Positions 1 through 13,236 of a stretch of 64,000 nucleotides of DNA are shown one piece after another. The notes under the pieces are model-generated. The model searched no databases and had not been told where the DNA came from. It saw only the letters and a list, made by a program, of their open reading frames with translations. The stretch's first letter is position 1, and every line of letters starts with the position of its first letter. Origin of the DNA: Clostridia bacterium (GTDB taxonomy: Bacteria; Bacillota; Clostridia; UMGS1883); contig JAZUCF010000018.1 of assembly GCA_045638945.1 (NCBI GenBank), forward strand, positions 1,954 to 65,953, read 5' to 3'. The position numbers and the translations under genes were made by a program.

Positions 1-1356
1 TATTTCGCTGTAGTGTGTTGTTGCCGCTACCTTTGCTCCGATGGAGCGTGCCCTTTCAAGAATGGAAACGGCAAGTGCCGCACCCTCCGTGGGGTCTGTT
101 CCCGAACAAAGCTCGTCGAAAAGAATCAGCGAATTATAGTTTGCATTATCAAGAATCCTGATAATATTGGTCATATGTGCGGAAAAGGTACTTAGCGACT
201 GTTCTATTGACTGCTCGTCGCCAATATCGGCAAACACGCTTTCAAACACTGCTATTTGGCTTCCCCCTGACGCAGGTATGCAAAGTCCCGACTGTGCCAT
301 AAGGGTAAACAGACCTAATGTTTTGATAGAAACGGTCTTGCCGCCTGTATTTGGACCTGTGATTACAAGGGTATCAAAATCCTTTCCCAGATATATATCC
401 GTGGGAACTACCTTTTTTTCGTCGATTAATGGGTGTCTGCCCTTCTTTATATCTATAATTCCGTCAGTATTAAGCTCGGGAACAGAGGCATTCATTTTAC
501 GTGACAGCTTGCCTTTTGCAAAAGTAAAATCAAGCTCAATTATAGCATTGTAATTTTGAATAAGCGGCTCGGTAAATTCTGCCACTTTTTCCGAAAGCTC
601 CCTTAAAATACGCTCAATTTCATCTTTTTCTTCGCTTTTAAGCTCACGAAGCTTATTATTTATTTCCACTGCCGCCATAGGCTCCACAAAAAGAGTTGCC
701 CCGCTTGCAGAGCTGTCGTGAACAACACCAGGAACCTGCCCCTTGTGCTCACTTTTAACAGGGATTACATAGCGGTCTCCCCTCATTGACACAATAGGCT
801 CCTGCAAAAGGTTTGAGTAGGAGGGGGAATGCACCATATTATTAAGCACTTCACGGATTTTGGAATGGAGAGAACGCATTTTTCTGCGTATGGAAAGAAG
901 CTCGCCTGATGCATCGTCCGCCATTTCTTCCTCGCTCATTATAGCGGAAAAAATCGCGTTTTCCAGCTTCCTGTTTTCGCTGACAGAGGAGAAAAGCTCC
1001 CAAAGGGCAGCATAATTTTCGCTAAATCCGTCCTCGTCACAGTAGCTTACAAGTCCGCGGGACATTCTCAAAACATGCCCGATTCCCAGAAGCTCCCCCA
1101 TTGAAAGAGTGCCGCCTGCCGCCGCCCTTTTTGCACTTCCCGAAATATTCCTCACGGGGCTTATGGGTGGTGTACCTTTTTTTATAATAAGGCTTTCTGC
1201 CTGGCTTGTAAGGGTGAGAAGCTCCCTTGCCCTATATATATTCGTTTCAGGAATGAGTGCTCCCAGACGCTCACGCGCCTCGGTGCATACTGCCTGTGAT
1301 TTAAGCATTTCCTTTATTGTATTAAATTCAAGAACACGCAGTGTACGTTCTTCCAT
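1..1356 (-). CDS. mutS2: Endonuclease MutS2 (5' part; runs off the window start)
   Basis: Read manually, not in the ORF track: starts MEERTLRVLEFNTIKEML, contains DELCSGTDP and VAATTHYSE motifs; no stop before base 1. Confidence 0.93.
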   Translation of the reverse strand, partial: MEERTLRVLEFNTIKEMLKSQAVCTEARERLGALIPETNIYRARELLTLTSQAESLIIKKGTPPISPVRNISGSAKRAAAGGTLSMGELLGIGHVLRMSRGLVSYCDEDGFSENYAALWELFSSVSENRKLENAIFSAIMSEEEMADDASGELLSIRRKMRSLHSKIREVLNNMVHSPSYSNLLQEPIVSMRGDRYVIPVKSEHKGQVPGVVHDSSASGATLFVEPMAAVEINNKLRELKSEEKDEIERILRELSEKVAEFTEPLIQNYNAIIELDFTFAKGKLSRKMNASVPELNTDGIIDIKKGRHPLIDEKKVVPTDIYLGKDFDTLVITGPNTGGKTVSIKTLGLFTLMAQSGLCIPASGGSQIAVFESVFADIGDEQSIEQSLSTFSAHMTNIIRILDNANYNSLILFDELCSGTDPTEGAALAVSILERARSIGAKVAATTHYSEI

Positions 1357-3817: not shown

Positions 3818-3850
3818 ATCAAAAGACAAATGTACACAGGTGGTGGACAC

Positions 3851-4285
3851 ATGGAGCAAAAAAAGCTTGTAATCGCCGATTTATCGGTGCTTCCCCCTGT
3901 TTATCACAAGATTTTAAAGGTTAAAGAGCTTTTGGAATCGGGCGAGGCAGAGACGGTAAACGAAGCGGCAGATATGGCAGAAGTGTCAAGAAGTGCGTAT
4001 TATAAATATAAGGACTACGTTTTCCCTTTCAACCAGATGCAGGGAATTTTAACGCTCCTTATAGCAGTAATTGACCTCACGGGCGTGCTCAGCGATATGT
4101 TATCATTTATGAGTGACGCGGGCTGCAATATTTTAACAATTAATCAGAATGTTCCCATTAACGGTGTTGCAAATATAACCGTTACCGTTCAGACGGAAAA
4201 TATGCGCCTTAGTACCGACCGCCTTATTTCAGGACTTCAGATGGTACGCGGCGTGCGGAAGGTAAATATACTTGCTAAGCAATAA
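3851..4285 (+). CDS. thrR: HTH + ACT domain regulator (ThrR/PheB family)
   Basis: N-terminal HTH (SRSAYYKYKD), C-terminal ACT (NILTINQNVP); first gene before hom. Confidence 0.8.
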   Translation: MEQKKLVIADLSVLPPVYHKILKVKELLESGEAETVNEAADMAEVSRSAYYKYKDYVFPFNQMQGILTLLIAVIDLTGVLSDMLSFMSDAGCNILTINQNVPINGVANITVTVQTENMRLSTDRLISGLQMVRGVRKVNILAKQ

Positions 4286-4311
4286 AAGCATTTACAAAGG
4301 AAGGTTAGCAC

Positions 4312-5514
4312 ATGAAGAAAATCGGAATTATCGGCTTCGGAGTTGTTGGCTCTGGAGTATATGAGATAATAAGAAAAAATAAAGATATTCTCTCAAAAAA
4401 CGCAGGGGAGGAAATCGATGTTAAGAAAATTCTTGACATCCGTGATTTTTCAGCCCATGAGGAGGCACATCTTTTCACAAAGGATTTCAATGACCTTGCA
4501 GGAGATTGTGAGATAGATATTGTTGTAGAAACAATGGGCGGTATAAAATTCGCCTATGAATACACAAAGGCACTTCTTTCTGCGGGAAAGAGCATTGTTA
4601 CAAGCAACAAGGAGCTTGTTGCCGCACACGGCGATGAATTTTTCCGCATTGCAAAGGAGAAGAATGTACGCTATCTTTACGAGGCAAGCGTAGGCGGAGG
4701 TATTCCCATTATCCGCCCCTTAGCAAACGATGTGGCAGCAAATGATATATACGAGGTTTCGGGTATTCTTAACGGAACCACAAACTATATTCTGACAAAG
4801 ATGTTTAAGGAAAACGAGTCCTTCGAGGGTGCACTTAAAACGGCACAGGAGCTGGGCTATGCGGAAAAAGACCCCACGGCAGATGTGGACGGATTTGATG
4901 CATGCAGAAAAATTTCCATTCTTATGTCACTTGTTACGGGAAAAAAGATTCCTTCCGAAATGGTACACACGGCAGGTATCCGTACAATAAGTGCAGAAGA
5001 CGTGACATATGCGGCGGCAATCGGCTGTACAATCAAGCTGATTGGATGCGGATTTACAAAAGACGGCAAGGTTAACGCCTCCGTTGAGCCGATGCTTATC
5101 CCCGAAAGCTGTCCCCTTTCAACCGTTGAGAACGTTTTCAACAGCGTTATGGTAAAGGGAAATATGGTGGATACCCTTATGTTCTACGGAAGAGGGGCTG
5201 GCAAGCTCCCCACAGCCAGTGCAGTAATGGGCGATGTGGTGGATATTGTCAGAAGCGGAGAATATAACCCCTATTTCACATGGGAGGAAAGCGACAGAGA
5301 GAGCTTTATCCCCTATGAAGATATAGAGGCTAAATTCTTTATACGTATAGACGAAAGTCAGATTGCCATAGCAAAAGAGGTTTTCGGTGACAGAGAATTT
5401 ATAAAAGGCGTTAATGATTACGGCTTTGTAACCGATGAGATAAAGATAGGAAAGCTTGCTGCGGATATTGAAAAAATCGGCGGGGCTATAAACAAAATAA
5501 GGCTTTATAAATAA
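4312..5514 (+). CDS. hom: Homoserine dehydrogenase
   Basis: GFGVVG, TSNKE, YEASVGGGIP, NGTTNYIL, GRGAG. Confidence 0.95.
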   Translation: MKKIGIIGFGVVGSGVYEIIRKNKDILSKNAGEEIDVKKILDIRDFSAHEEAHLFTKDFNDLAGDCEIDIVVETMGGIKFAYEYTKALLSAGKSIVTSNKELVAAHGDEFFRIAKEKNVRYLYEASVGGGIPIIRPLANDVAANDIYEVSGILNGTTNYILTKMFKENESFEGALKTAQELGYAEKDPTADVDGFDACRKISILMSLVTGKKIPSEMVHTAGIRTISAEDVTYAAAIGCTIKLIGCGFTKDGKVNASVEPMLIPESCPLSTVENVFNSVMVKGNMVDTLMFYGRGAGKLPTASAVMGDVVDIVRSGEYNPYFTWEESDRESFIPYEDIEAKFFIRIDESQIAIAKEVFGDREFIKGVNDYGFVTDEIKIGKLAADIEKIGGAINKIRLYK

Positions 5515-5533
5515 TCCCAAGGAGGTAATTATA

Positions 5534-6745
5534 GTGGGTTTAATAGTACAGAAATTCGGCGGCAGCAGTGTTGCCAATGCGGAAAGAGTTTTCCGCGTAG
5601 CAAGCCGTATTGTGGAAACTTACGACGAGGGTAACGACGTTGTGGTAGTTGTTTCCGCACAGGGCGATACTACGGATGATTTGCTTGAAAAAGCGGCAGA
5701 AATCAACAAAAACGCGTCAAAAAGAGAAATGGACGTTCTTCTCTCGGCAGGAGAGCAGATTTCAATGTCACTTCTTGCAATGGCTATTGAGAAGCTGGGA
5801 AGACCCGTTGTTTCCCTTACAGGCTGGCAGGCAGGTGTAAATACCAGCAGCAATTATTCAAAGGCGCGCATTAAGCGTATTGTCGGCGAGAGAATTCATC
5901 TGGAGCTTGACAAAAAGAAAATTGTTATCGTGGCAGGCTTCCAGGGCATTAATAAGTTTGATGATATCACAACTCTCGGACGAGGCGGCTCAGATACTTC
6001 GGCAGTTGCTCTTGCGGCGGCTCTGGGGGCTGACCTTTGTCAGATATTCACAGACGTAACAGGCGTGTATACAACCGACCCCAGAATCGTGCCTGAAGCT
6101 AAAAAGCTTAATGAAATTACTTACGACGAAATGCTGGAGCTGGCAAGTGCAGGTGCAAATGTGCTTCATAACAGAAGCGTGGAGCTTGCAAAGAAATTTA
6201 ATGTAAATATGGAAGTGCTGTCAAGCTTTGAAAAAGTTCCCGGCACTATTGTTAAGGAGGAAAACACAGTGGAAAAGATGTTAATCAGAGGTATTGCCCG
6301 TGATAATGATGTTGCAAGAATTGCTCTTGTAAATATTGATGATAAGCCCGGAAAGGCTTTCCAGATATTCTCACTTTTAGCAAAGAAAAAGGTGAATGTT
6401 GATATTATTCTCCAGTCAATCGGCCGTGATGGAAGTAAGGATATCAGCTTCACTGTAAGTGCAGGCGACCTTGAAACAGCGCTTAACGTAATTAACGAAA
6501 ACAACTCCATCATCTGTGCAGAAAAGGTTATTCATGATGAAAACGTATCAAAGGTTTCCGTTGTAGGTGCAGGTATGACATCAAATCCCGGTGTTGCTGC
6601 AACAATGTTTGAAGCTCTTTACGATGCAGGAATCAACATTCAGATGATTTCCACAAGCGAAATCCGTGTAAGCGTTCTTATTGACAGAAAAGATGCGGAA
6701 AACGCAGTGAAGGCGATACACAGTAAATTCAACCTTGCTGACTAA
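5534..6745 (+). CDS. lysC: Aspartate kinase (alpha subunit)
   Basis: VQKFGGSS, TLGRGGSDTSA, two ACT domains, ISTSEI; GTG start after GGAGG. Confidence 0.95.
   Translation: MGLIVQKFGGSSVANAERVFRVASRIVETYDEGNDVVVVVSAQGDTTDDLLEKAAEINKNASKREMDVLLSAGEQISMSLLAMAIEKLGRPVVSLTGWQAGVNTSSNYSKARIKRIVGERIHLELDKKKIVIVAGFQGINKFDDITTLGRGGSDTSAVALAAALGADLCQIFTDVTGVYTTDPRIVPEAKKLNEITYDEMLELASAGANVLHNRSVELAKKFNVNMEVLSSFEKVPGTIVKEENTVEKMLIRGIARDNDVARIALVNIDDKPGKAFQIFSLLAKKKVNVDIILQSIGRDGSKDISFTVSAGDLETALNVINENNSIICAEKVIHDENVSKVSVVGAGMTSNPGVAATMFEALYDAGINIQMISTSEIRVSVLIDRKDAENAVKAIHSKFNLAD
6269..6745 (+). CDS. Probable in-frame aspartate kinase beta subunit
   Basis: AAGGAGG at 6254-6260, 8 nt before an in-frame GTG at codon 246. 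Confidence 0.7.
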   Translation: MEKMLIRGIARDNDVARIALVNIDDKPGKAFQIFSLLAKKKVNVDIILQSIGRDGSKDISFTVSAGDLETALNVINENNSIICAEKVIHDENVSKVSVVGAGMTSNPGVAATMFEALYDAGINIQMISTSEIRVSVLIDRKDAENAVKAIHSKFNLAD

Positions 6746-6758
6746 TACGGAATGTGAT

Positions 6759-7020
6759 AAAGCAGCACCGACCGCAAAACGCGAGGGGTGCTATATGGGG
6801 AGGCGCTTTTCTTTGGTTGTTTAACAAAGAGGCTTTTCTTGATTAATGTAGAACTTCGCTCAGGCGAAGTTCTATTTTTATGCGTTTTGCTATCCGCGAA
6901 CTTCACCCTCGACGTACCCTCGTACGCCTTCGGGCAAGCCCTAATGGGTTCAGTTCGTGAATTCTGCACTACTTTCTCCCATTCCTCAATGCGTGCGGCA
7001 AAGCAGCACCGACCGCAAAA
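6759..7020 (-). repeat. Structured intergenic repeat, family A copy 1, bounded by a 21-bp direct repeat
   Basis: 87-nt core 6884-6970 is near-identical to 16610-16696 and to the reverse complement of 46124-46210. Confidence 0.9.
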
Positions 7021-7042
7021 AAATGTAGTTTTTACTTATAAT

Positions 7043-7078
7043 TACGCATATGCGTATACGCAGAAACGTAAAAACGCA
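7043..7078. promoter_or_regulatory. Putative operator of XRE gene 1
   Basis: Overlapping perfect palindromes TACGCATATGCGTA (7043-7056) and TGCGTATACGCA (7051-7062), plus further half-sites. Confidence 0.55.
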
Positions 7079-7103
7079 TACAATATCCATGAGGTGAAGC
7101 AAA

Positions 7104-7346
7104 ATGGATATAAAAGATGCTATTGTAGCACGATTTATGGAGCTATGCACTGAAAAGGGAATTAAAATAAATGAGCTTGCAACCTTGTCGGGTGTTACTC
7201 CGTCTACGGCATATAGTATGATGGATAAATCACGCCGAGATATTTCGATACGAACAATTAAGAAATTCTGCGATGGTCTGGAAATTACGTTAGGAGAGTT
7301 CTTTTCAACCGGTGAATTTGATAATCTTGAGCAGGAGATAAAATAA
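7104..7346 (+). CDS. XRE/Cro-family HTH regulator 1
   Basis: 80 aa; INELATLSGVTPST HTH; GAGGTG RBS. Confidence 0.9.
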   Translation: MDIKDAIVARFMELCTEKGIKINELATLSGVTPSTAYSMMDKSRRDISIRTIKKFCDGLEITLGEFFSTGEFDNLEQEIK

Positions 7347-7391
7347 GTAGTATGTTAGTAAGACCCGTTTTGTTAATGTCGGTTCTTTTTG
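7317..7391 (+). repeat. 75-bp direct repeat copy 1 (XRE 3' end + comEC 5' end)
   Basis: 74/75 identical to 7735-7809. Confidence 0.95.
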
Positions 7392-7430
7392 TGGCGAGGG
7401 TATATTTCGCTGTGAAAAGAACCGATTTTT
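7378..7430 (+). terminator. Putative intrinsic terminator after XRE gene 1
   Basis: GTCGGTTCTTTTTGTGGCGAG pairs with TTCGCTGTGAAAAGAACCGAT (several G-U pairs), followed by a T-run. Confidence 0.6.
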
Positions 7431-7446
7431 CGTGCTTTGTCCAAAA

Positions 7447-7516
7447 TTAACTCTAAAGAGGTAACTATTTTAACTCAAAAAGGGTAATGTTTTAATATAA
7501 AACTCTTTTGAGGTGA
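7447..7516. promoter_or_regulatory. Three 18-bp pseudo-palindromic operators upstream of XRE gene 2
   Basis: TTAACTC-TAAA-GAGGTAA (7447), TTAACTC-AAAA-AGGGTAA (7470), AAAACTC-TTTT-GAGGTGA (7499, overlaps the RBS). Confidence 0.6.
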
Positions 7517-7521
7517 TGATT

Positions 7522-7764
7522 TTGAACATCGGAACAGCAGTTAAGCTAAGAATTCTCGAACTTTGTAAGGAAAAGAATGTTACTGTGAATAAGCTTGCAA
7601 CCATATGCGGAATAACGCAATCAACGCTGAGCAATATAGTGGGAGGCAGAAATAATTCAGCCACAATTTCTACAATAAAGAAAATTTGTGACGGATTAAA
7701 TCTTCATATAAGGGATTTTTTCTCCTCCACTCTTTTTGATAATCTTGAGCAGGAGATAAAATAA
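7522..7764 (+). CDS. XRE/Cro-family HTH regulator 2
   Basis: VNKLATICGITQSTLSNI HTH; TTG start chosen from GAGGTG spacing (ORF open from 7513). Confidence 0.9.
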   Translation: MNIGTAVKLRILELCKEKNVTVNKLATICGITQSTLSNIVGGRNNSATISTIKKICDGLNLHIRDFFSSTLFDNLEQEIK

Positions 7765-7809
7765 ATAGTATGTTAGTAAGACCCGTTTTGTTAATGTCGG
7801 TTCTTTTTG
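7735..7809 (+). repeat. 75-bp direct repeat copy 2
   Basis: See 7317-7391; offset 418 bp. Confidence 0.95.
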
Positions 7810-9830
7810 CGGCAGGAATATATTTCTGCACCTTAGGAATCGGCATTTTCTGGATAATCATAATGACCGCCCTGCTCTGTATAGGGGGCGTGCTTCTATA
7901 CAGGGATAAAAGATGGCTATGCGTGGGGATTTCCCTTTTTATGGTGCTGGGCTTTGGCAGAATGGAGCTTGCCCAAGGCCGAAAAGACCGCATCGGAGCT
8001 ATCTATGGCGGAAGCACATTTCAGGGGCAGGTAATAATCACGGATTTTTCCGATAAGGGCAAGGTGGAAGCTTCCTTTAAAGACAACGGGGAAAAGGTGA
8101 AGATTTATCTCAAAACCAATTCCAATATAATGTTATCTCCGGGGGACATTCTTTGGGGAAGCTTTGTGCTTTCGGAATACTCTCCGTCAAAAACAAGCCT
8201 TTTTAATTATTCTTCGTATATGCACAGTGACGGAATTTATCTTAGTGCAGAGGCGGAGAGCTTTCAATGGGGCGGACGAATGACAAAAGGTATAGAGGGA
8301 TTCATCTACAAAATCCGCACACGCATGGACCGTTTGGGACAGAAAGCCTTTAAGGGCGACAGCCGCGGACTCTTTAATGCCATGGTGTTCGGGGATAAAA
8401 GGCTGCTTTCGGATGAGCTTGACAACGCCCTTAGGAAAAGCGGACTCAGCCATATAGCCGTAGTTTCGGGAATGCATATATCCGCCATTATTATGGCAAT
8501 GGTTTTCTTTCTTGGGAAAATATTCGGTAAAAAACGGTATGTAAATATATTTGTGCTTTTCGGAGCCTTCTTTATAGCTCTTGTTACGGGGATGGGTGCA
8601 AGCGTAATAAGGGCACTTATAATGTGTGTTATATTCCATCTTTCAAAAATACTTTACCGTGACAATGATACCTACACAACAATTGCCCTGTCGGCACTGA
8701 TTATGCTTGTTGTAAATCCTTATTATATGGCAAACGTGGGATTTATATTGTCGCTTCTGTGTGTTCTGGGTATTGTTCTCTACGCCGATAAAATTAAAGG
8801 AGCAATAAGCGGTATTCTTCCCCCGTGGGCAAGTAATGCCGCGGCGGTAAGCATTGCCGCACAAATTATTGTTATACCTGTTCTCATAGCAAATTTCAGG
8901 ACAGTTAATCCCTATTCGGTTATATCAAACATTTTGATTTTTCCCGTTTCTTCCCTGTTTGTAGTGCTGGGACTTTTGTATTTTGCTTTGTCAAAAATCT
9001 CTTTTATCTCAGCTTTTCTGCAAATAGTCCTGCAAAGAATTGCAGATGTTATAGAGGGTGTCAGCCTCGGAGTTTCAAGAGTGCCCGGTGCAGACCTGGA
9101 AACAGGGGGCCTGGGCATCTTTTTTGCAGTAAGTTGGTTTTTTATTCTCATAGCCATACATATTTATCCTTCAAAAAGCAGTATGCTGAAAGCTCTGTGC
9201 TGCGGATGGCTTCTGGCAATGTGTATTGCGGTTACCTTTAACCACGGGGTAAAATTGGATATGCACTTTGCCCACTACGGCTCGGACACCTTTTCCGCTC
9301 TCAAGGTTAAAGACGGAGGCTTAATCTATATTGATTGCCCCGATTACTATGACGCGGCGGCGTTAAGCGAGGATTATGACGAGGAGGTTAATTGCCTTAT
9401 TATTTCATCACTTCCCAAGGGTGATGTGTTTTCGCTTTTGGAAAGCAGACCTCCCGAAATAGTGATTGCTTCCGACGACCTTTTAACAGACGAAGAAAAG
9501 CTTGTTCTTCAGAAACAGGCATCACGCAAAGGAATACGGGCCATGTTTTTAAAGGATTCAGAAAGAATCAGCGTGAATGGTGCATGGATAGAATATTTTC
9601 CCATTGAAAACGTGAGAGGACAAGCCGTGCGTATTGAATATGGGGATTGTGTTTTCGTGTCGCTTCAGGGACTTGTGGCAAAGGACACGCAAAAGCTCTT
9701 GGAGTCGGGCTTTAAGATAAAATGCGACTATCTGAAAATCCCCTACAGAATCACAAGCAAAGACGCAGATTTTTCCTCTCTTACAGACGGGAAAATATTG
9801 TTTCGGGAAAAGCAACTTGCCGTGAAATAA
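7770..9830 (+). CDS. comEC: ComEC/Rec2 DNA uptake channel
   Basis: GLSHIAVVSGMHIS competence motif, SVIRA, many TM segments; degenerate C-terminal beta-lactamase-like domain. Confidence 0.9.
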   Translation: MLVRPVLLMSVLFAAGIYFCTLGIGIFWIIIMTALLCIGGVLLYRDKRWLCVGISLFMVLGFGRMELAQGRKDRIGAIYGGSTFQGQVIITDFSDKGKVEASFKDNGEKVKIYLKTNSNIMLSPGDILWGSFVLSEYSPSKTSLFNYSSYMHSDGIYLSAEAESFQWGGRMTKGIEGFIYKIRTRMDRLGQKAFKGDSRGLFNAMVFGDKRLLSDELDNALRKSGLSHIAVVSGMHISAIIMAMVFFLGKIFGKKRYVNIFVLFGAFFIALVTGMGASVIRALIMCVIFHLSKILYRDNDTYTTIALSALIMLVVNPYYMANVGFILSLLCVLGIVLYADKIKGAISGILPPWASNAAAVSIAAQIIVIPVLIANFRTVNPYSVISNILIFPVSSLFVVLGLLYFALSKISFISAFLQIVLQRIADVIEGVSLGVSRVPGADLETGGLGIFFAVSWFFILIAIHIYPSKSSMLKALCCGWLLAMCIAVTFNHGVKLDMHFAHYGSDTFSALKVKDGGLIYIDCPDYYDAAALSEDYDEEVNCLIISSLPKGDVFSLLESRPPEIVIASDDLLTDEEKLVLQKQASRKGIRAMFLKDSERISVNGAWIEYFPIENVRGQAVRIEYGDCVFVSLQGLVAKDTQKLLESGFKIKCDYLKIPYRITSKDADFSSLTDGKILFREKQLAVK

Positions 9831-9908
9831 TAAATTTGTGTTACAACTATGGAAATTTTCATATGTTGTGATATAATGAATCAGTAGTGAAGTAGAGGAG
9901 GAATCCGT

Positions 9909-10643
9909 ATGATTGATAAAATAGAGGGCAGAAACCCTGTGGCGGAAGCACTCAAGAGTGGCAGAAACATAGATAAAATATATGTAAAAAAAGGCGATAA
10001 GCACGGAAGCATAATTCCCATTATCCGCATGGCAAAGGAAAAAGGCATTACCGTGACGGAAACAGACGGGAAAAAGCTTGACGAAATGAGCCTTACGGGA
10101 GCACATCAGGGAGTTATCGCCCAGTGTGCCATGGCAGAATATGCCACCGTGGATGATATTTTAAAGCGTGCCGAGGAAAAGGGCGAGCCCCCCTTTATCG
10201 TAATTCTTGACCGCATAGCAGACCCCCGAAATTTAGGCTCAATCATAAGAACGGCAAACTGTGCGGGAGTGCACGGAATTATTATTTCCAAGCACGATTC
10301 GGCAACGCTTACCGCTGTTTGTGCCAAGGCAAGTGCAGGTGCGGTGGAATATACTCCCGTGGCACGGGTGACAAGCCTTGCCAAAACCATTGACGATTTG
10401 AAAAAGAAAAATATCTGGGTAAGCGGAGCAGATGCTTCGGGGGACAAGGATATTTATGAGTCAGACCTTAAAGGAGCAGTAGCAATCGTAATCGGCTCCG
10501 AGGGCGAGGGAATCAGCCGCCTTGTTTTGGAAAAGTGTGATTTCAAGGTGAAAATTCCTATGAAAGGCGACGTTAATTCCCTTAATGCCTCTGTGGCGGC
10601 GGCACTTTTTATCTATGAAGCGGTAAGGCAAAATTCATTATAA
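9909..10643 (+). CDS. rlmB: 23S rRNA Gm2251 methyltransferase
   Basis: IEGRNPV, DPRNLGSIIRTA, GSEGEG, SLNASVA (SPOUT). Confidence 0.93.
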   Translation: MIDKIEGRNPVAEALKSGRNIDKIYVKKGDKHGSIIPIIRMAKEKGITVTETDGKKLDEMSLTGAHQGVIAQCAMAEYATVDDILKRAEEKGEPPFIVILDRIADPRNLGSIIRTANCAGVHGIIISKHDSATLTAVCAKASAGAVEYTPVARVTSLAKTIDDLKKKNIWVSGADASGDKDIYESDLKGAVAIVIGSEGEGISRLVLEKCDFKVKIPMKGDVNSLNASVAAALFIYEAVRQNSL

Positions 10644-10656
10644 AGGAGTAATTAAA

Positions 10657-10914
10657 ATGCGTGCAGTAGTAACGGTAGTAGGAAAAGATAAGACGGGTAT
10701 CATTGCAAGAGTCAGCGGGCTTTTTTATGAGAAGAACATTAATATTCTCGATATTTCACAAAAGCTGATGCAAAACCTCTTTACCATGATTGCTCTTGTG
10801 GATTTGGAAAAAAGCACTCTTGGTATGGAGGAGCTTACGGCAGAGCTTGAAAAAGCGGGAAATGAGCTTAATGTAGCAATCCGTGTTCTTCCCGAGGAAA
10901 TGTTCCGCCGCTGA
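10657..10914 (+). CDS. ACT domain protein (UPF0237-like)
   Basis: MRAVVTVVGKDKTGIIARVS...NILDISQ. Confidence 0.85.
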   Translation: MRAVVTVVGKDKTGIIARVSGLFYEKNINILDISQKLMQNLFTMIALVDLEKSTLGMEELTAELEKAGNELNVAIRVLPEEMFRR

Positions 10915-10962
10915 TTTTCGGCACCCCCCTTTTCTATTACTATCGTTGAAGGAGGGATTTAA

Positions 10963-13236
10963 TTGAAAAGAATAATTGCATTAATTTTAGCATTTAGTAT
11001 ATACGCTTGTGCCTCGGCATCAGCGACACCCCTTTATTCTTCCATGGAGGAGGAAGTTGTGACAGGCGGTGTCACCCTTACGAGGAAGCAGCAGTTTTTC
11101 GGCTCTTACGCACTGAATATAAACTGCGTAACGGCCGATTTAAAAAATGAAAATTTAAGCTTTGAGCTTTTAAAGCACAGCGGCGGCAGTGATAAGACCG
11201 CTACTGTAAAAGACCTGGCACAAAAAGAGGAAAATACGGTCGTTGCCATAAACGGCGACTTTTTCTCCGCATATAAAGGCGACCAGAATTTCTCCTTGGG
11301 AATCGAGGTTAAAGACGGAGAGCTTTTGCAGTCCCACATAAATCCCGATATGGCGGCAGGATTTTTAAGTAAAAATGTGCTTTCATTTTCATATCTTACC
11401 TATCAGGGCGAGGTGGAAGCACCCGACGGCACAAAAATGCCCATAGCCCATATTAACAAGCCCACCGACTATTACGGTGCGGTGCTTATGTACACCCCTG
11501 AATTTAATGGGGGCATTTCGCCTTTTCTTCCCGAGGGTATCACGGCAGTTACCGTTACGGAGGACGTTGTGACGGCAAAGGGCGTAAGCCTTGGCGGAAG
11601 TATTCCCATTCCCGAGGGCGGGTACATTCTGGTAATTGATGATAATATGACTCCGTTTTTAGAATATAAATTTAACCTTGGGGACGCTGTTAAAACAAAA
11701 ATCCAGTTTTCTCCCTCAATCGAAAATGTGGAAACCGCATTCGGAGGGGGTACGCTTCTTTTAAAAGACGGCAAAAAAACAGAGATTACACATAATGTGG
11801 CAGGGAATAATCCGAGAAGTGCAATCGGCACAAACGAGGACGGAACTGTGGTTTATTTTATTACCGTTGACGGCAGACAAAACCAAAGCCGAGGAGTATC
11901 TCTTAGCGAGCTTGCCGACATATGCCTTGATTTTGGGTGTGTAAATGCCCTTAATCTTGACGGTGGCGGCTCTACTGCAATGGTTGGAAAAACTCTCAAA
12001 GATGAAAGTCTGAGTTTTCTTAACAGCCCCATAGAAAACAGAAAGGTAATAAACGCACCTGCAATTGTAAGTAATGCAAAAAGCGGTGAGGCTGTCGGAG
12101 CATTCATAGAAGCAGAAAATGACTATGTTTTAACGGGGGACAGTGTAAAACTCATGGTTACCCCCTATGATAAAAACTATAATAAGCCCTCGAAGGGCAC
12201 GGAAAAGATAAAGCTTGTCTTAGCGGAGGGAATGGGCAGTATAAAGGATAACACCTTCTATCCGCAGGGAAATGAACCTGCCGTAATCGACGTGTACTGC
12301 AAGGGTAAAAAAACCGATAGCTGCACCGTCAGCGTAATTGACGAGGTCAGCGGAATTATTGCCCCCAAAGAGATACCTCTGAAAAAAGGCGAAAGCTATA
12401 AGGCAGAGGGACAGATAAAGGTCTTTGACAAGCACGGCAAAACCGCCGTTGTCAGGGATTTAACCCTACTTCAGCCAAAATTTGATTCAAAATTGGTATC
12501 TCTTAGTTTTGATGCAACGGTAAAAGCCCTAAGCGAGGGTGCAAGTGAAATCAAGCTGATGCACGGAAATGCTCAAAGAAGCATTGAGGTTATTTGCGGA
12601 GATTATGAAATTGATGCCGAAAAGCCCATTGTGGCAGATTCTTTGGCACAGCAGTCCGATGCAGGCTTTGTATTCGATATTTATTCATCATCAAAAATGA
12701 ATACCCTCTTTGACAGGGCCGCCTACGCTCATAATATGAATGTACTGAAAAAGGCGGACGCCTCCGTTATTATAGGAGGAGATAAGCCCGAGGACCTTAC
12801 TCCCGACAGTCTTGGTTTAATAAAGACCGATTCCTACGGCGAAAGTGATATTTTTAATTCAAAGGTTATTACAATAAAGCAGGACAAGGGTAAATTCTCC
12901 CGAGGGGAGCAGTGGAAAAAGCTTGCCGAGGCACTAAAGAATGCACAGCAGGATAATATTTTTATCATTTCCGATGAAGCCATAGGCTTTGTGTCGGATA
13001 TTGACCGCAAGGCGTTCCATAGCCTTATTACCGAGAGGGCAAAGGAAAAGAATGTGTTTGTAATTTCAGGCGGAGAGGAGAATTTCTGCCGTATTGCAGA
13101 CGGGGTTCGTTATATTACAGTGGCAGACCCACGTCAGGAGGACAGCATTTTTCATTCAATAAAAAATGCAAGCAGACTCTCTTTCAGAATTACAAGCAAC
13201 TCAATAACCTACAGCTTTAAGAAATTATTTGAATAA
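10963..13236 (+). CDS. Secreted phosphodiester glycosidase (NAGPA-domain) family protein
   Basis: Signal peptide; AINGDFF, NPRSAIG, TVDGR, ALNLDGGGST. Confidence 0.85.
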   Translation: MKRIIALILAFSIYACASASATPLYSSMEEEVVTGGVTLTRKQQFFGSYALNINCVTADLKNENLSFELLKHSGGSDKTATVKDLAQKEENTVVAINGDFFSAYKGDQNFSLGIEVKDGELLQSHINPDMAAGFLSKNVLSFSYLTYQGEVEAPDGTKMPIAHINKPTDYYGAVLMYTPEFNGGISPFLPEGITAVTVTEDVVTAKGVSLGGSIPIPEGGYILVIDDNMTPFLEYKFNLGDAVKTKIQFSPSIENVETAFGGGTLLLKDGKKTEITHNVAGNNPRSAIGTNEDGTVVYFITVDGRQNQSRGVSLSELADICLDFGCVNALNLDGGGSTAMVGKTLKDESLSFLNSPIENRKVINAPAIVSNAKSGEAVGAFIEAENDYVLTGDSVKLMVTPYDKNYNKPSKGTEKIKLVLAEGMGSIKDNTFYPQGNEPAVIDVYCKGKKTDSCTVSVIDEVSGIIAPKEIPLKKGESYKAEGQIKVFDKHGKTAVVRDLTLLQPKFDSKLVSLSFDATVKALSEGASEIKLMHGNAQRSIEVICGDYEIDAEKPIVADSLAQQSDAGFVFDIYSSSKMNTLFDRAAYAHNMNVLKKADASVIIGGDKPEDLTPDSLGLIKTDSYGESDIFNSKVITIKQDKGKFSRGEQWKKLAEALKNAQQDNIFIISDEAIGFVSDIDRKAFHSLITERAKEKNVFVISGGEENFCRIADGVRYITVADPRQEDSIFHSIKNASRLSFRITSNSITYSFKKLFE

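Follow-up and report, generated by a model that had tools for sequence, protein, structure and literature searches.

The stretch of DNA considered here (64,000 nt, called the window in its full length) covers positions 1,954 to 65,953 of the forward strand of contig JAZUCF010000018.1 in assembly GCA_045638945.1 of a Clostridia bacterium, and contains the competence gene comEC together with two genes for small XRE-type regulators situated in front of it. From left to right, the locus consists of the aspartate kinase gene lysC (5534..6745, +; Pfam AA_kinase and ACT domains), a promoter region P1 with the regulator gene XRE1 (7104..7346, +), an XRE tail with a truncated comEC start (the comEC' stub, a candidate terminator), a second promoter region P2 with the regulator gene XRE2 (7513..7764, +), and comEC itself (7770..9830, +). 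As the conserved left neighbour of this locus, lysC precedes comEC in the majority of the species in the genus. The account that we regard as probable is that XRE1 and XRE2 are ancient paralogs, that the junction between regulator and comEC was copied and then homogenised by gene conversion, and that recombination at this junction repeatedly deletes, reorders or replaces the regulator of comEC in related rumen bacteria.

Both regulator genes end in a nearly identical junction sequence. Window positions 7317..7391 (+; repeat copy 1, J1) and 7735..7809 (+; repeat copy 2, J2) agree at 74 of 75 bases in an ungapped register with an offset of 418 bp, the sole mismatch being G at 7347 and A at 7765, and a looser likeness of the two copies extends to 7408/7826. 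Each copy begins with the final 30 nt of an XRE gene (FDNLEQEIK-stop), continues through a spacer of 5 nt and ends with the initial 40 nt (13 codons) of comEC, which belong to the stub in J1 and to the true gene in J2. The repeat occurs only twice in the 1.63-Mb genome, and chance cannot account for 75 nt matched at 99% identity within 64 kb. An earlier note on this DNA had described this repeat and its coordinates correctly, including the divergence of the two regulator genes.

XRE1 encodes a Cro/C1-type helix-turn-helix (HTH) regulator of 80 amino acids (aa), and the open reading frame (ORF) listed for XRE2 has 83 aa. Both match the Pfam families HTH_26 (PF13443; 34.7 bits for XRE1 and 44.8 bits for XRE2) and HTH_3 (PF01381; 26 and 33.9 bits) above the curated cut-offs of 22 and 23 bits, respectively, and the two proteins are identical at 37 of 80 residues (46%). 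The listed XRE2 frame begins at a GTG at 7513; the starts of its orthologs align with the TTG at 7522, directly after GAGGTGAT, which is likely the true start and would give XRE2 the same 80-aa length as XRE1. The closest protein of solved structure is Prophage Lp1 protein 11 (PDB 3b7h), matched by a joint XRE1 and XRE2 profile over residues 5-76 (E 3e-17). Like this protein and the SinR-type small Cro/C1 repressors, XRE1 and XRE2 are HTH proteins of about 80 aa, but they differ from them in a conserved C-terminal helix, …FDxLEQEI(K/R), which is a feature of the whole XRE family to which they belong. In the AlphaFold2 model of XRE1 (pLDDT, the predicted local distance difference test score, 87.9), this tail forms the C-terminal helix at residues 70-79.

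Each regulator gene is preceded by its own conserved promoter region. P1 (7039..7103, +) contains the overlapping palindromes TACGCATATGCGTA (7043-7056) and TGCGTATACGCA (7051-7062); the last ~65 nt before XRE1 are kept in all 11 XRE1 loci of the genus, and the sequences further upstream are unrelated. Across species, the arms of the P1 site TACGCAnnTGCGTATACGCA are fixed and its central two bases vary. The 14-mer palindrome of P1 has two sites in the genome, the other one (C5:103868) not being promoter-like in appearance. P2 (7449..7514, +) contains three operator-like sites (7449-7462, 7472-7485 and 7501-7514) of the form AACTCnnnnG(A/G)GGT, the third of which overlaps the ribosome-binding site of XRE2. 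Ten of the 13 XRE2 loci in the genus share this arrangement, again with unrelated sequence further upstream, and the other three (G021, G026 and G030) retain site 3 only, after a deletion. A regulon search with the motif AACTC[AT]4G[AG]GGT found no occurrence in the genome outside P2. The palindromes of P1 and P2 would act as operators of XRE1 and XRE2, and both genes are probably self-regulated. Because conserved promoter palindromes lie ahead of each gene, "operator + XRE cassette," as the earlier note had it, is a fair description of the unit; P1 TACGCAnnTGCGTATACGCA and the three P2 sites are conserved even across species whose ComEC N-termini are ~30% identical, in keeping with a predicted operator function. 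A second short, GC-rich hairpin repeat (…GGGGAATCGGAACCCC…) was seen by eye upstream of P1 in G012 (L055:1990-2090), G061 and G062.

Across the genus, XRE1-type proteins are 77-96% and XRE2-type proteins 71-100% identical to those of the window, even in species whose ComEC N-terminus is just 24-38% and whose LysC C-terminus is 38-65% identical. The nucleotide identity of the XRE orthologs amounts to merely 70-77%, approximately, and this points to old purifying selection and not to recent transfer. XRE1 and XRE2 are paralogs of ancient origin, kept by strong purifying selection, rather than mobile cargo of recent arrival. The suggestion that competence genes serve here as integration targets, which the earlier note had drawn on, finds no place at this locus.

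That the duplication is old but the repeat at its borders fresh is a puzzle which gene conversion resolves. For the spacer and the first 45 nt of comEC, copies 1 and 2 agree at 48 of 53 positions within the genome of the window (G000) and at 52 of 53 within that of a related species, G012. Between these two genomes, the true comEC starts agree at only 44 of 53 positions and the stubs at 40 of 53, and across G000, G012 and G030 the junction segment agrees at 44-47 of 53. The stub itself is not young: in G012, an orphan 3' arm directly left of P2 matches window positions 7403-7450 at 40 of 47 bases. As this junction between the stub 3' arm and P2 is common to G000 and G012, the latter being the deepest branch of a five-species clade on the ComEC tree, the stub is older than their split. 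Within-genome copies are more alike than orthologs between species, which argues for gene conversion.

The XRE tails follow the same pattern. XRE1 and XRE2 tails are identical at 30 of 30 positions in G000 and in G012, and they are homogenised as well in G015 (27/27) and G016 (26/27), both of which are without a comEC stub; the XRE1 tails of G026, G030 and G021 keep their own synonymous codons and match the XRE2 tail at 25-26 of 30 positions. For the last 27 nt of XRE genes, identity between different types is 0.92 in the same genome (n = 7) and 0.88 in the same clade (n = 37), and that between genes of the same type in different clades is 0.81 (n = 86); the corresponding values for the preceding 120 nt are 0.48, 0.50 and 0.73. 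These figures are descriptive: related species do not count as independent, and the short tract encodes a conserved helix. On these values, the last 27 nt track the lineage and not the XRE type, whereas the preceding 120 nt track the type. This supports the proposal of the earlier note that the conserved XRE tail is the crossover zone, as does a third regulator described below, which is joined to comEC through a 27-nt tail relic. Paralogous copies that resemble each other more than orthologous ones, in a tract surrounded by diverged flanks, are what is found in concerted evolution by gene conversion, and the pattern carries the signature of repeated exchange limited to the tail and the junction. 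The tuf gene pair of enterobacteria is a textbook case of such concerted evolution. The comEC locus resembles it in that within-genome copies are more alike than orthologs between species, but differs in that the tract spans just ~75-90 nt, made up of a gene end, a spacer and the start of the next gene, while the gene bodies are 46% identical.

The stub (7352..7450, +) retains an open frame of 32 codons and is derived from comEC to about 7432. It matches ComEC residues 1-21 at 76% identity (tblastn), and when its distal part was aligned to positions +41..100 of comEC from G030 and G012, 3 of 1000 shuffles scored as high. Out of the stub, a terminator-like hairpin with a T-run has been made (7378..7430, +), with a 22-bp stem at 7378-7426 followed by TTTTT. 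A terminator scan matched it at 7379-7425 plus TTTTT, and its fold (-25.9 kcal/mol, z -5.6) was equalled in stability by none of 200 shuffles. With a G+C-containing stem-loop and a T-run directly after it, the element has the features of an intrinsic (Rho-independent) terminator, and it may act as one. Its source is an imperfect hairpin in codons 9-26 of comEC (7793..7847, +; -24 kcal/mol, z -4.9), which is weaker in G030, G021 and G012 (z -1.3 to -2.4) and weak or absent in remoter species. The hairpin in the first 26 codons of the true comEC is itself followed by a U-run, U6 in G030, G021 and G012, and might act as an attenuator within the start of the coding region. The perfect form may have come from the imperfect one by template-switch "correction" of a quasi-palindrome, an idea known from the literature.

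Comparable elements stand behind XRE1 in other species. The G012 stub forms a hairpin followed by U6 (-22.1 kcal/mol, z -3.8), and in G015 and G016, where XRE1 (or what is left of it) and XRE2 occur without a stub, unrelated hairpins with U6 lie behind XRE1 (z -3.6 and -3.7). XRE1 would accordingly form a separate transcription unit whose putative terminator, in G000 and G012, was made from the copied comEC hairpin.

Of 39 genomes searched, 38 have comEC, one of them lacking its 5' end, and the comEC 5' region was compared in the remaining 37 species of the genus. Six species have an intact XRE1 and XRE2 pair, two have XRE2 with remains of XRE1, four have XRE1 only, five XRE2 only, two a third regulator, and 18 have none. 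The intact pairs occur in several layouts: XRE1-stub-XRE2 in G000, the reversed order XRE2-stub-XRE1 in G012, XRE1-terminator-XRE2 (the terminator being predicted) in G015, and, in G021, G026 and G030, XRE1 followed 15 nt on by XRE2, with the stub and most of P2 absent. The last three share the same junction, which therefore goes back to a single 154-bp deletion at a 4-nt microhomology. Remains of XRE1 together with XRE2, otherwise laid out as in G015, are found in G036, where XRE1 is broken by a deletion at a CGAACA microhomology, and in G016, where its tail only is left. XRE1 alone precedes comEC in G002, G007, G061 and G062, and XRE2 alone in G006, G013, G017, G018 and G027, the contig of G006 ending 105 nt upstream. 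In G003 and G024, a third, unrelated regulator (HTH_19/HTH_3; 26% identical to XRE1) with its own hairpin is followed by a 27-nt XRE-tail relic directly before comEC. This protein has 80 aa, and its gene lies beside a divergent 78-aa ORF of no known family (L028:1859-2439 in G024; the same in G003). The comparison of lysC-comEC intervals, which the earlier note had proposed as a check, thus yields zero, one or two cassettes in either order and is far from an invariant layout.

On the ComEC tree (36 rows; G001, G010 and G025, being fragmentary or without a match, were omitted), the XRE-bearing loci form one clade of 18, to which G018 is added. In each of the 18 species of this clade, the comEC ATG is preceded at a distance of 4-8 nt by the stop codon of an XRE gene or by a relic of it. 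Because of this short distance, comEC is most likely read from the nearest upstream XRE promoter, which here would be that of P2/XRE2. The species with XRE1 (G062), with XRE2 (G006 and G013) and with the third regulator (G003 and G024) are close relatives with end branches of 0.06-0.13, and between G062 and either G003 or G024 homology starts 32 nt before the ATG, within the XRE tail. Unrelated upstream sequences in close relatives, at odds with the ComEC tree, are the mark of switched regulatory regions. In "switched" intergenic regions, or horizontal regulatory transfer, upstream regulatory DNA of core genes is replaced by recombination, as described for E. coli and S. aureus (PMC5890482). 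As in the cases given there, the conserved gene stays in place, its upstream region is replaced by unrelated DNA, and the distribution disagrees with the gene tree. The comEC locus differs in that a whole promoter plus regulator gene is exchanged, in that the right-hand crossover zone lies inside the regulator 3' end abutting comEC, and in that modules can stack in tandem and a duplicated gene start would serve as a terminator. Switched regulatory regions are the closest described phenomenon, combined here with concerted evolution by gene conversion. A literature search for XRE genes with comEC in Clostridia or the rumen turned up no paper on such a locus among the titles listed.

From these observations, the following course of events can be proposed. 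A segment made up of an XRE tail, the spacer and the first ~80 nt of comEC would have been copied behind XRE1, by homology between the XRE tails at one end and by an illegitimate join at the other, before G000 and G012 split. Since then, gene conversion has repeatedly homogenised the proximal ~75-90 nt of both copies, as the pattern in these two species shows, while in the distal stub, released from coding, the imperfect comEC hairpin would have become one with a perfect 22-bp stem and a T-run. This hairpin would end the XRE1 transcription unit, as the unrelated hairpin-plus-U6 sites presumably do in G015 and G016. The shared tail and junction would then be a preferred spot for RecA-type and microhomology-mediated recombination, giving rise to the 154-bp deletion of stub and P2 (in G026, G030 and G021 and in metagenome contigs), to the reversed order in G012, to the XRE1-only and XRE2-only layouts, and, in G003 and G024, to the exchange for a third regulator, with a relic of the tail left behind. 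As a net effect, the promoter and regulator governing comEC would differ between close relatives. The joints show either long homology (tail plus junction) or a microhomology of 4-6 nt, and ordinary homologous recombination, gene conversion and illegitimate joins suffice to produce them, possibly acting on DNA acquired by uptake from relatives. The earlier note had predicted that a crossover between the repeats would put XRE1 directly before comEC, and this is the layout present in four species. Its further idea that regulator cassettes are stacked or swapped at the comEC 5' end holds in so far as it is understood as ordinary homologous and illegitimate recombination; it does not hold for a free 418-bp circle, none having been found.

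Several points weigh against this account. All genomes compared within the genus are MAGs (metagenome-assembled genomes), and promoters, termination and co-transcription with comEC are predicted from sequence. The distal stub resembles the genome's own comEC weakly, with a score reached by 18 of 1000 shuffles, and under stricter local-alignment scoring the likeness is not significant (183/2000). The simple terminator scanner called the hairpin of G000 and not those of G012, G015 or G016, which are based on folds. As the 27-30 nt of the tail encode a conserved helix and sit at the expected position of a ribosome-binding site, selection adds to tail identity. The layout of G000 cannot be converted into that of G012 by one crossover, implying at least two events, a three-cassette intermediate or a recombinant origin. 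Finally, since the XRE family is mostly unlinked to comEC elsewhere (ComEC follows in 1 of 80 loci), regulation of comEC may be incidental read-through.

Another explanation assumes no ongoing conversion and regards the repeats of G000 and G012 as scars of young, independent insertions of foreign XRE cassettes, which would have entered by DNA uptake and been integrated by homology-facilitated illegitimate recombination, with the homology in comEC or the XRE tail. In this process, a homologous anchor and a microhomology join insert foreign DNA and duplicate part of the anchor, as described for naturally competent species (PMC3240628). The anchor, the microhomology join and the partial anchor duplication are likenesses shared by the comEC locus, but the events at this locus may equally be intrachromosomal, and DNA uptake by these uncultured bacteria is putative. 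Besides comEC, the genome has genes for DprA and for ComEA-like and ComFC-like proteins. G012 is moreover a mosaic relative to G000, with identities of 93% in lysC and the repeat element, 91% in P2-XRE2, 89% in P1-XRE1 and 81% in the 5' part of comEC. Young insertion nevertheless appears unlikely: the stub 3' arm-P2 junction common to G000 and G012 (40/47) makes the stub older than their split, within-genome copies match better than orthologs, and the tails of the stub-less G015 and G016 are homogenised as well.

A broader form of the preferred account, in which the junction is a standing exchange joint at which strains and species would stack, permute and replace ~0.4-kb promoter-repressor cassettes, possibly via uptake through ComEC and possibly through a 418-bp circle opened at the hairpin, is given little credence here.

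Selection on a functional element, such as a ribosome-binding site, the start of a small membrane peptide or an RNA hairpin or attenuator, might also have frozen both junction copies. Strong hairpins are present in both copies, the stub frame stays open for 32 codons in G000 and, by eye, for a short stretch in G012, and an AGGAG lies in the XRE tail 14 nt before the ATG. However, tails without AGGAG are present before comEC in G002 and G007, and the junction segment diverges at a normal rate between species (44-47/53 among G000, G012 and G030), the agreement existing only within one genome. Selection by itself therefore fails to account for the identity within genomes, and we hold this explanation to be rather improbable.

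The 418-bp unit (stub 3' arm, P2, XRE2, tail and comEC 5' arm) could alternatively be a mobile cassette that is excised as a circle and reinserted at hairpins with the help of a single-strand-DNA (HUH/Y1) or other recombinase acting in trans. The direct repeats would yield a circle of 418 bp, and exactly this length (window 6986-7403, with a 5-nt overlap at the joint) is lacking in G012, where XRE1 follows the second stub behind a different upstream sequence and the end points of the rearrangement lie in the hairpin loop. The G000 genome contains one Y1_Tnp gene on another contig (C1), and in 7 of the best 80 loci of the XRE family an ORF follows 4-11 nt after XRE, three of the four tested with Pfam being Y1_Tnp. 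The likeness to integron cassettes and IS200/IS605 elements extends to a short promoter-bearing unit, direct repeats with a hairpin and a possible circular form. Unlike them, the comEC locus is without an integrase, a Y1 transposase, an array site, further copies or an observed circle. The genome has just two junction copies and no further intact copy of XRE1 or XRE2, and no recombinase gene was found within window 3830-13236, in agreement with the earlier note, which had seen none locally. The 4-6 nt microhomologies at the junctions are typical of illegitimate recombination, and the stable XRE1 and XRE2 orthologs with 70-77% nucleotide identity point to old vertical genes. As for the excision junctions that the note had suggested searching for, neither a 418-bp deletion joining XRE1 to comEC nor a circle junction was present among the 15 listed joints from four metagenome runs, in contigs that drop rare variants and thus say nothing on rare excision. 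Taken together, a mobile cassette is very unlikely.

The genome is a MAG of 1.63 Mb in 30 contigs, 84% complete, and unitigs built at k=31 break inside the repeat; the link between XRE1 and the stub therefore depends on the assembler bridging a 44-nt identical run between the diagnostic bases 7347 and 7392. Unitigs from runs of two studies span 7362-7795 and 7362-7637 and thereby cover copy 1, stub, P2 and XRE2. Among metagenome contigs, the stub form was found in two of four runs and the 154-bp deletion form with its 4-nt microhomology in the two others (X6 and X8). A scan of metagenome contigs with the exact junction pattern gave 0 matches, and of the 99 pattern matches obtained with ComEC residues 1-200, none was confirmed. 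That the assembly fused two strain alleles, one with XRE1-comEC and one with XRE2-comEC, into a chimera, which the earlier note had named as a possible refutation and which the fragmented MAG and the broken unitigs might favour, is hardly credible, as the stub leaves comEC after 7391 and joins P2 by unique sequence that no allele pair would supply, this join recurs in contigs of two studies and, as orthologous sequence, in the independently assembled G012, and XRE1 is followed by XRE2 on one contig in three sister species and in contigs of two further runs.

Outside the comEC locus, the XRE family is large and has varied neighbours. A scan of one genome per species revealed at least 590 family loci, and the downstream genes were counted for the best 80, all from Oscillospirales or Clostridia MAGs or isolates with 68-86% identity. 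ComEC was next downstream in one of these 80 loci, which belongs to the genus studied here, and ComFC-like genes (DZR_2 and Pribosyltran) in three. A role of the family as a dedicated competence regulator was considered and dropped on these counts, most members being stand-alone. In the three ComFC-like loci (L096, L103 and L137, from other Oscillospirales), the XRE gene is followed within 1-15 nt by a gene for a double zinc ribbon and phosphoribosyltransferase protein, which is a second, rare link between the family and DNA-uptake genes. Aside from the seven loci with ORFs sharing a common N-terminal motif 4-11 nt behind XRE, mentioned above, the best 80 have varied downstream genes or a stand-alone XRE. 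In species without XRE at comEC, XRE2-type genes are stand-alone with a hairpin behind them. As the family is mostly stand-alone elsewhere, its tie to comEC is specific to this lineage.

XRE genes followed 1-11 nt after the stop by an ORF of ~165 aa were observed at L060, L062, L064, L067, L069, L071 and L074 and in G032 (L010) and G029 (L017), and XRE with a Y1_Tnp (IS200-like) ORF appears to be a recurrent regulator-HUH pair. A decayed fragment of a further XRE subtype, ending in …LEQEIE-stop with a hairpin behind it, is located at G000:C11:21724-21876 (L142:1500-1660), and intact stand-alone versions are present in several species of the genus.

ComEC proteins carry the Competence domain (PF03772) and an N-terminal DUF4131, and in many members a C-terminal metallo-beta-lactamase domain. 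The 686-aa protein of the window matches Competence with an E value of 2e-48 and DUF4131 with 28.2 bits, the curated cut-off of that family being 31.6; no Pfam match to Lactamase_B, the metallo-beta-lactamase domain, was obtained in it. Between lysC and P1, a dispersed repeat occupies window positions 6759-7020 and is flanked by perfect 21-nt direct repeats (6759-6779 and 7000-7020). Its core of ~100 nt (about 6870-6980) recurs in part at no fewer than 12 other places in the genome and at many in the genus, and contig depth shows a spike there; the repeat includes a terminator-like hairpin at 6848-6875. A search of window 6600-8000 against Rfam in evalue mode gave four matches, each far under its gathering score.

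In the comEC locus, nature provides a clear case of a core gene whose control is rewired while the gene itself remains untouched. Through a short shared junction, whole promoter-regulator modules can be lost, reordered and replaced, and the leftover gene start would be recycled as a terminator. For annotation, it carries a warning that near-identical short repeats beside diverged paralogs can mean gene conversion and not a young duplication or a mobile element. If the junction were indeed a standing exchange joint, control of DNA uptake would switch among at least three repressors over short evolutionary time. Since comEC encodes the DNA-uptake channel of abundant uncultured Clostridia of the rumen and gut, the two or three small repressors and their conserved candidate operators provide handles for asking when these bacteria take up DNA.

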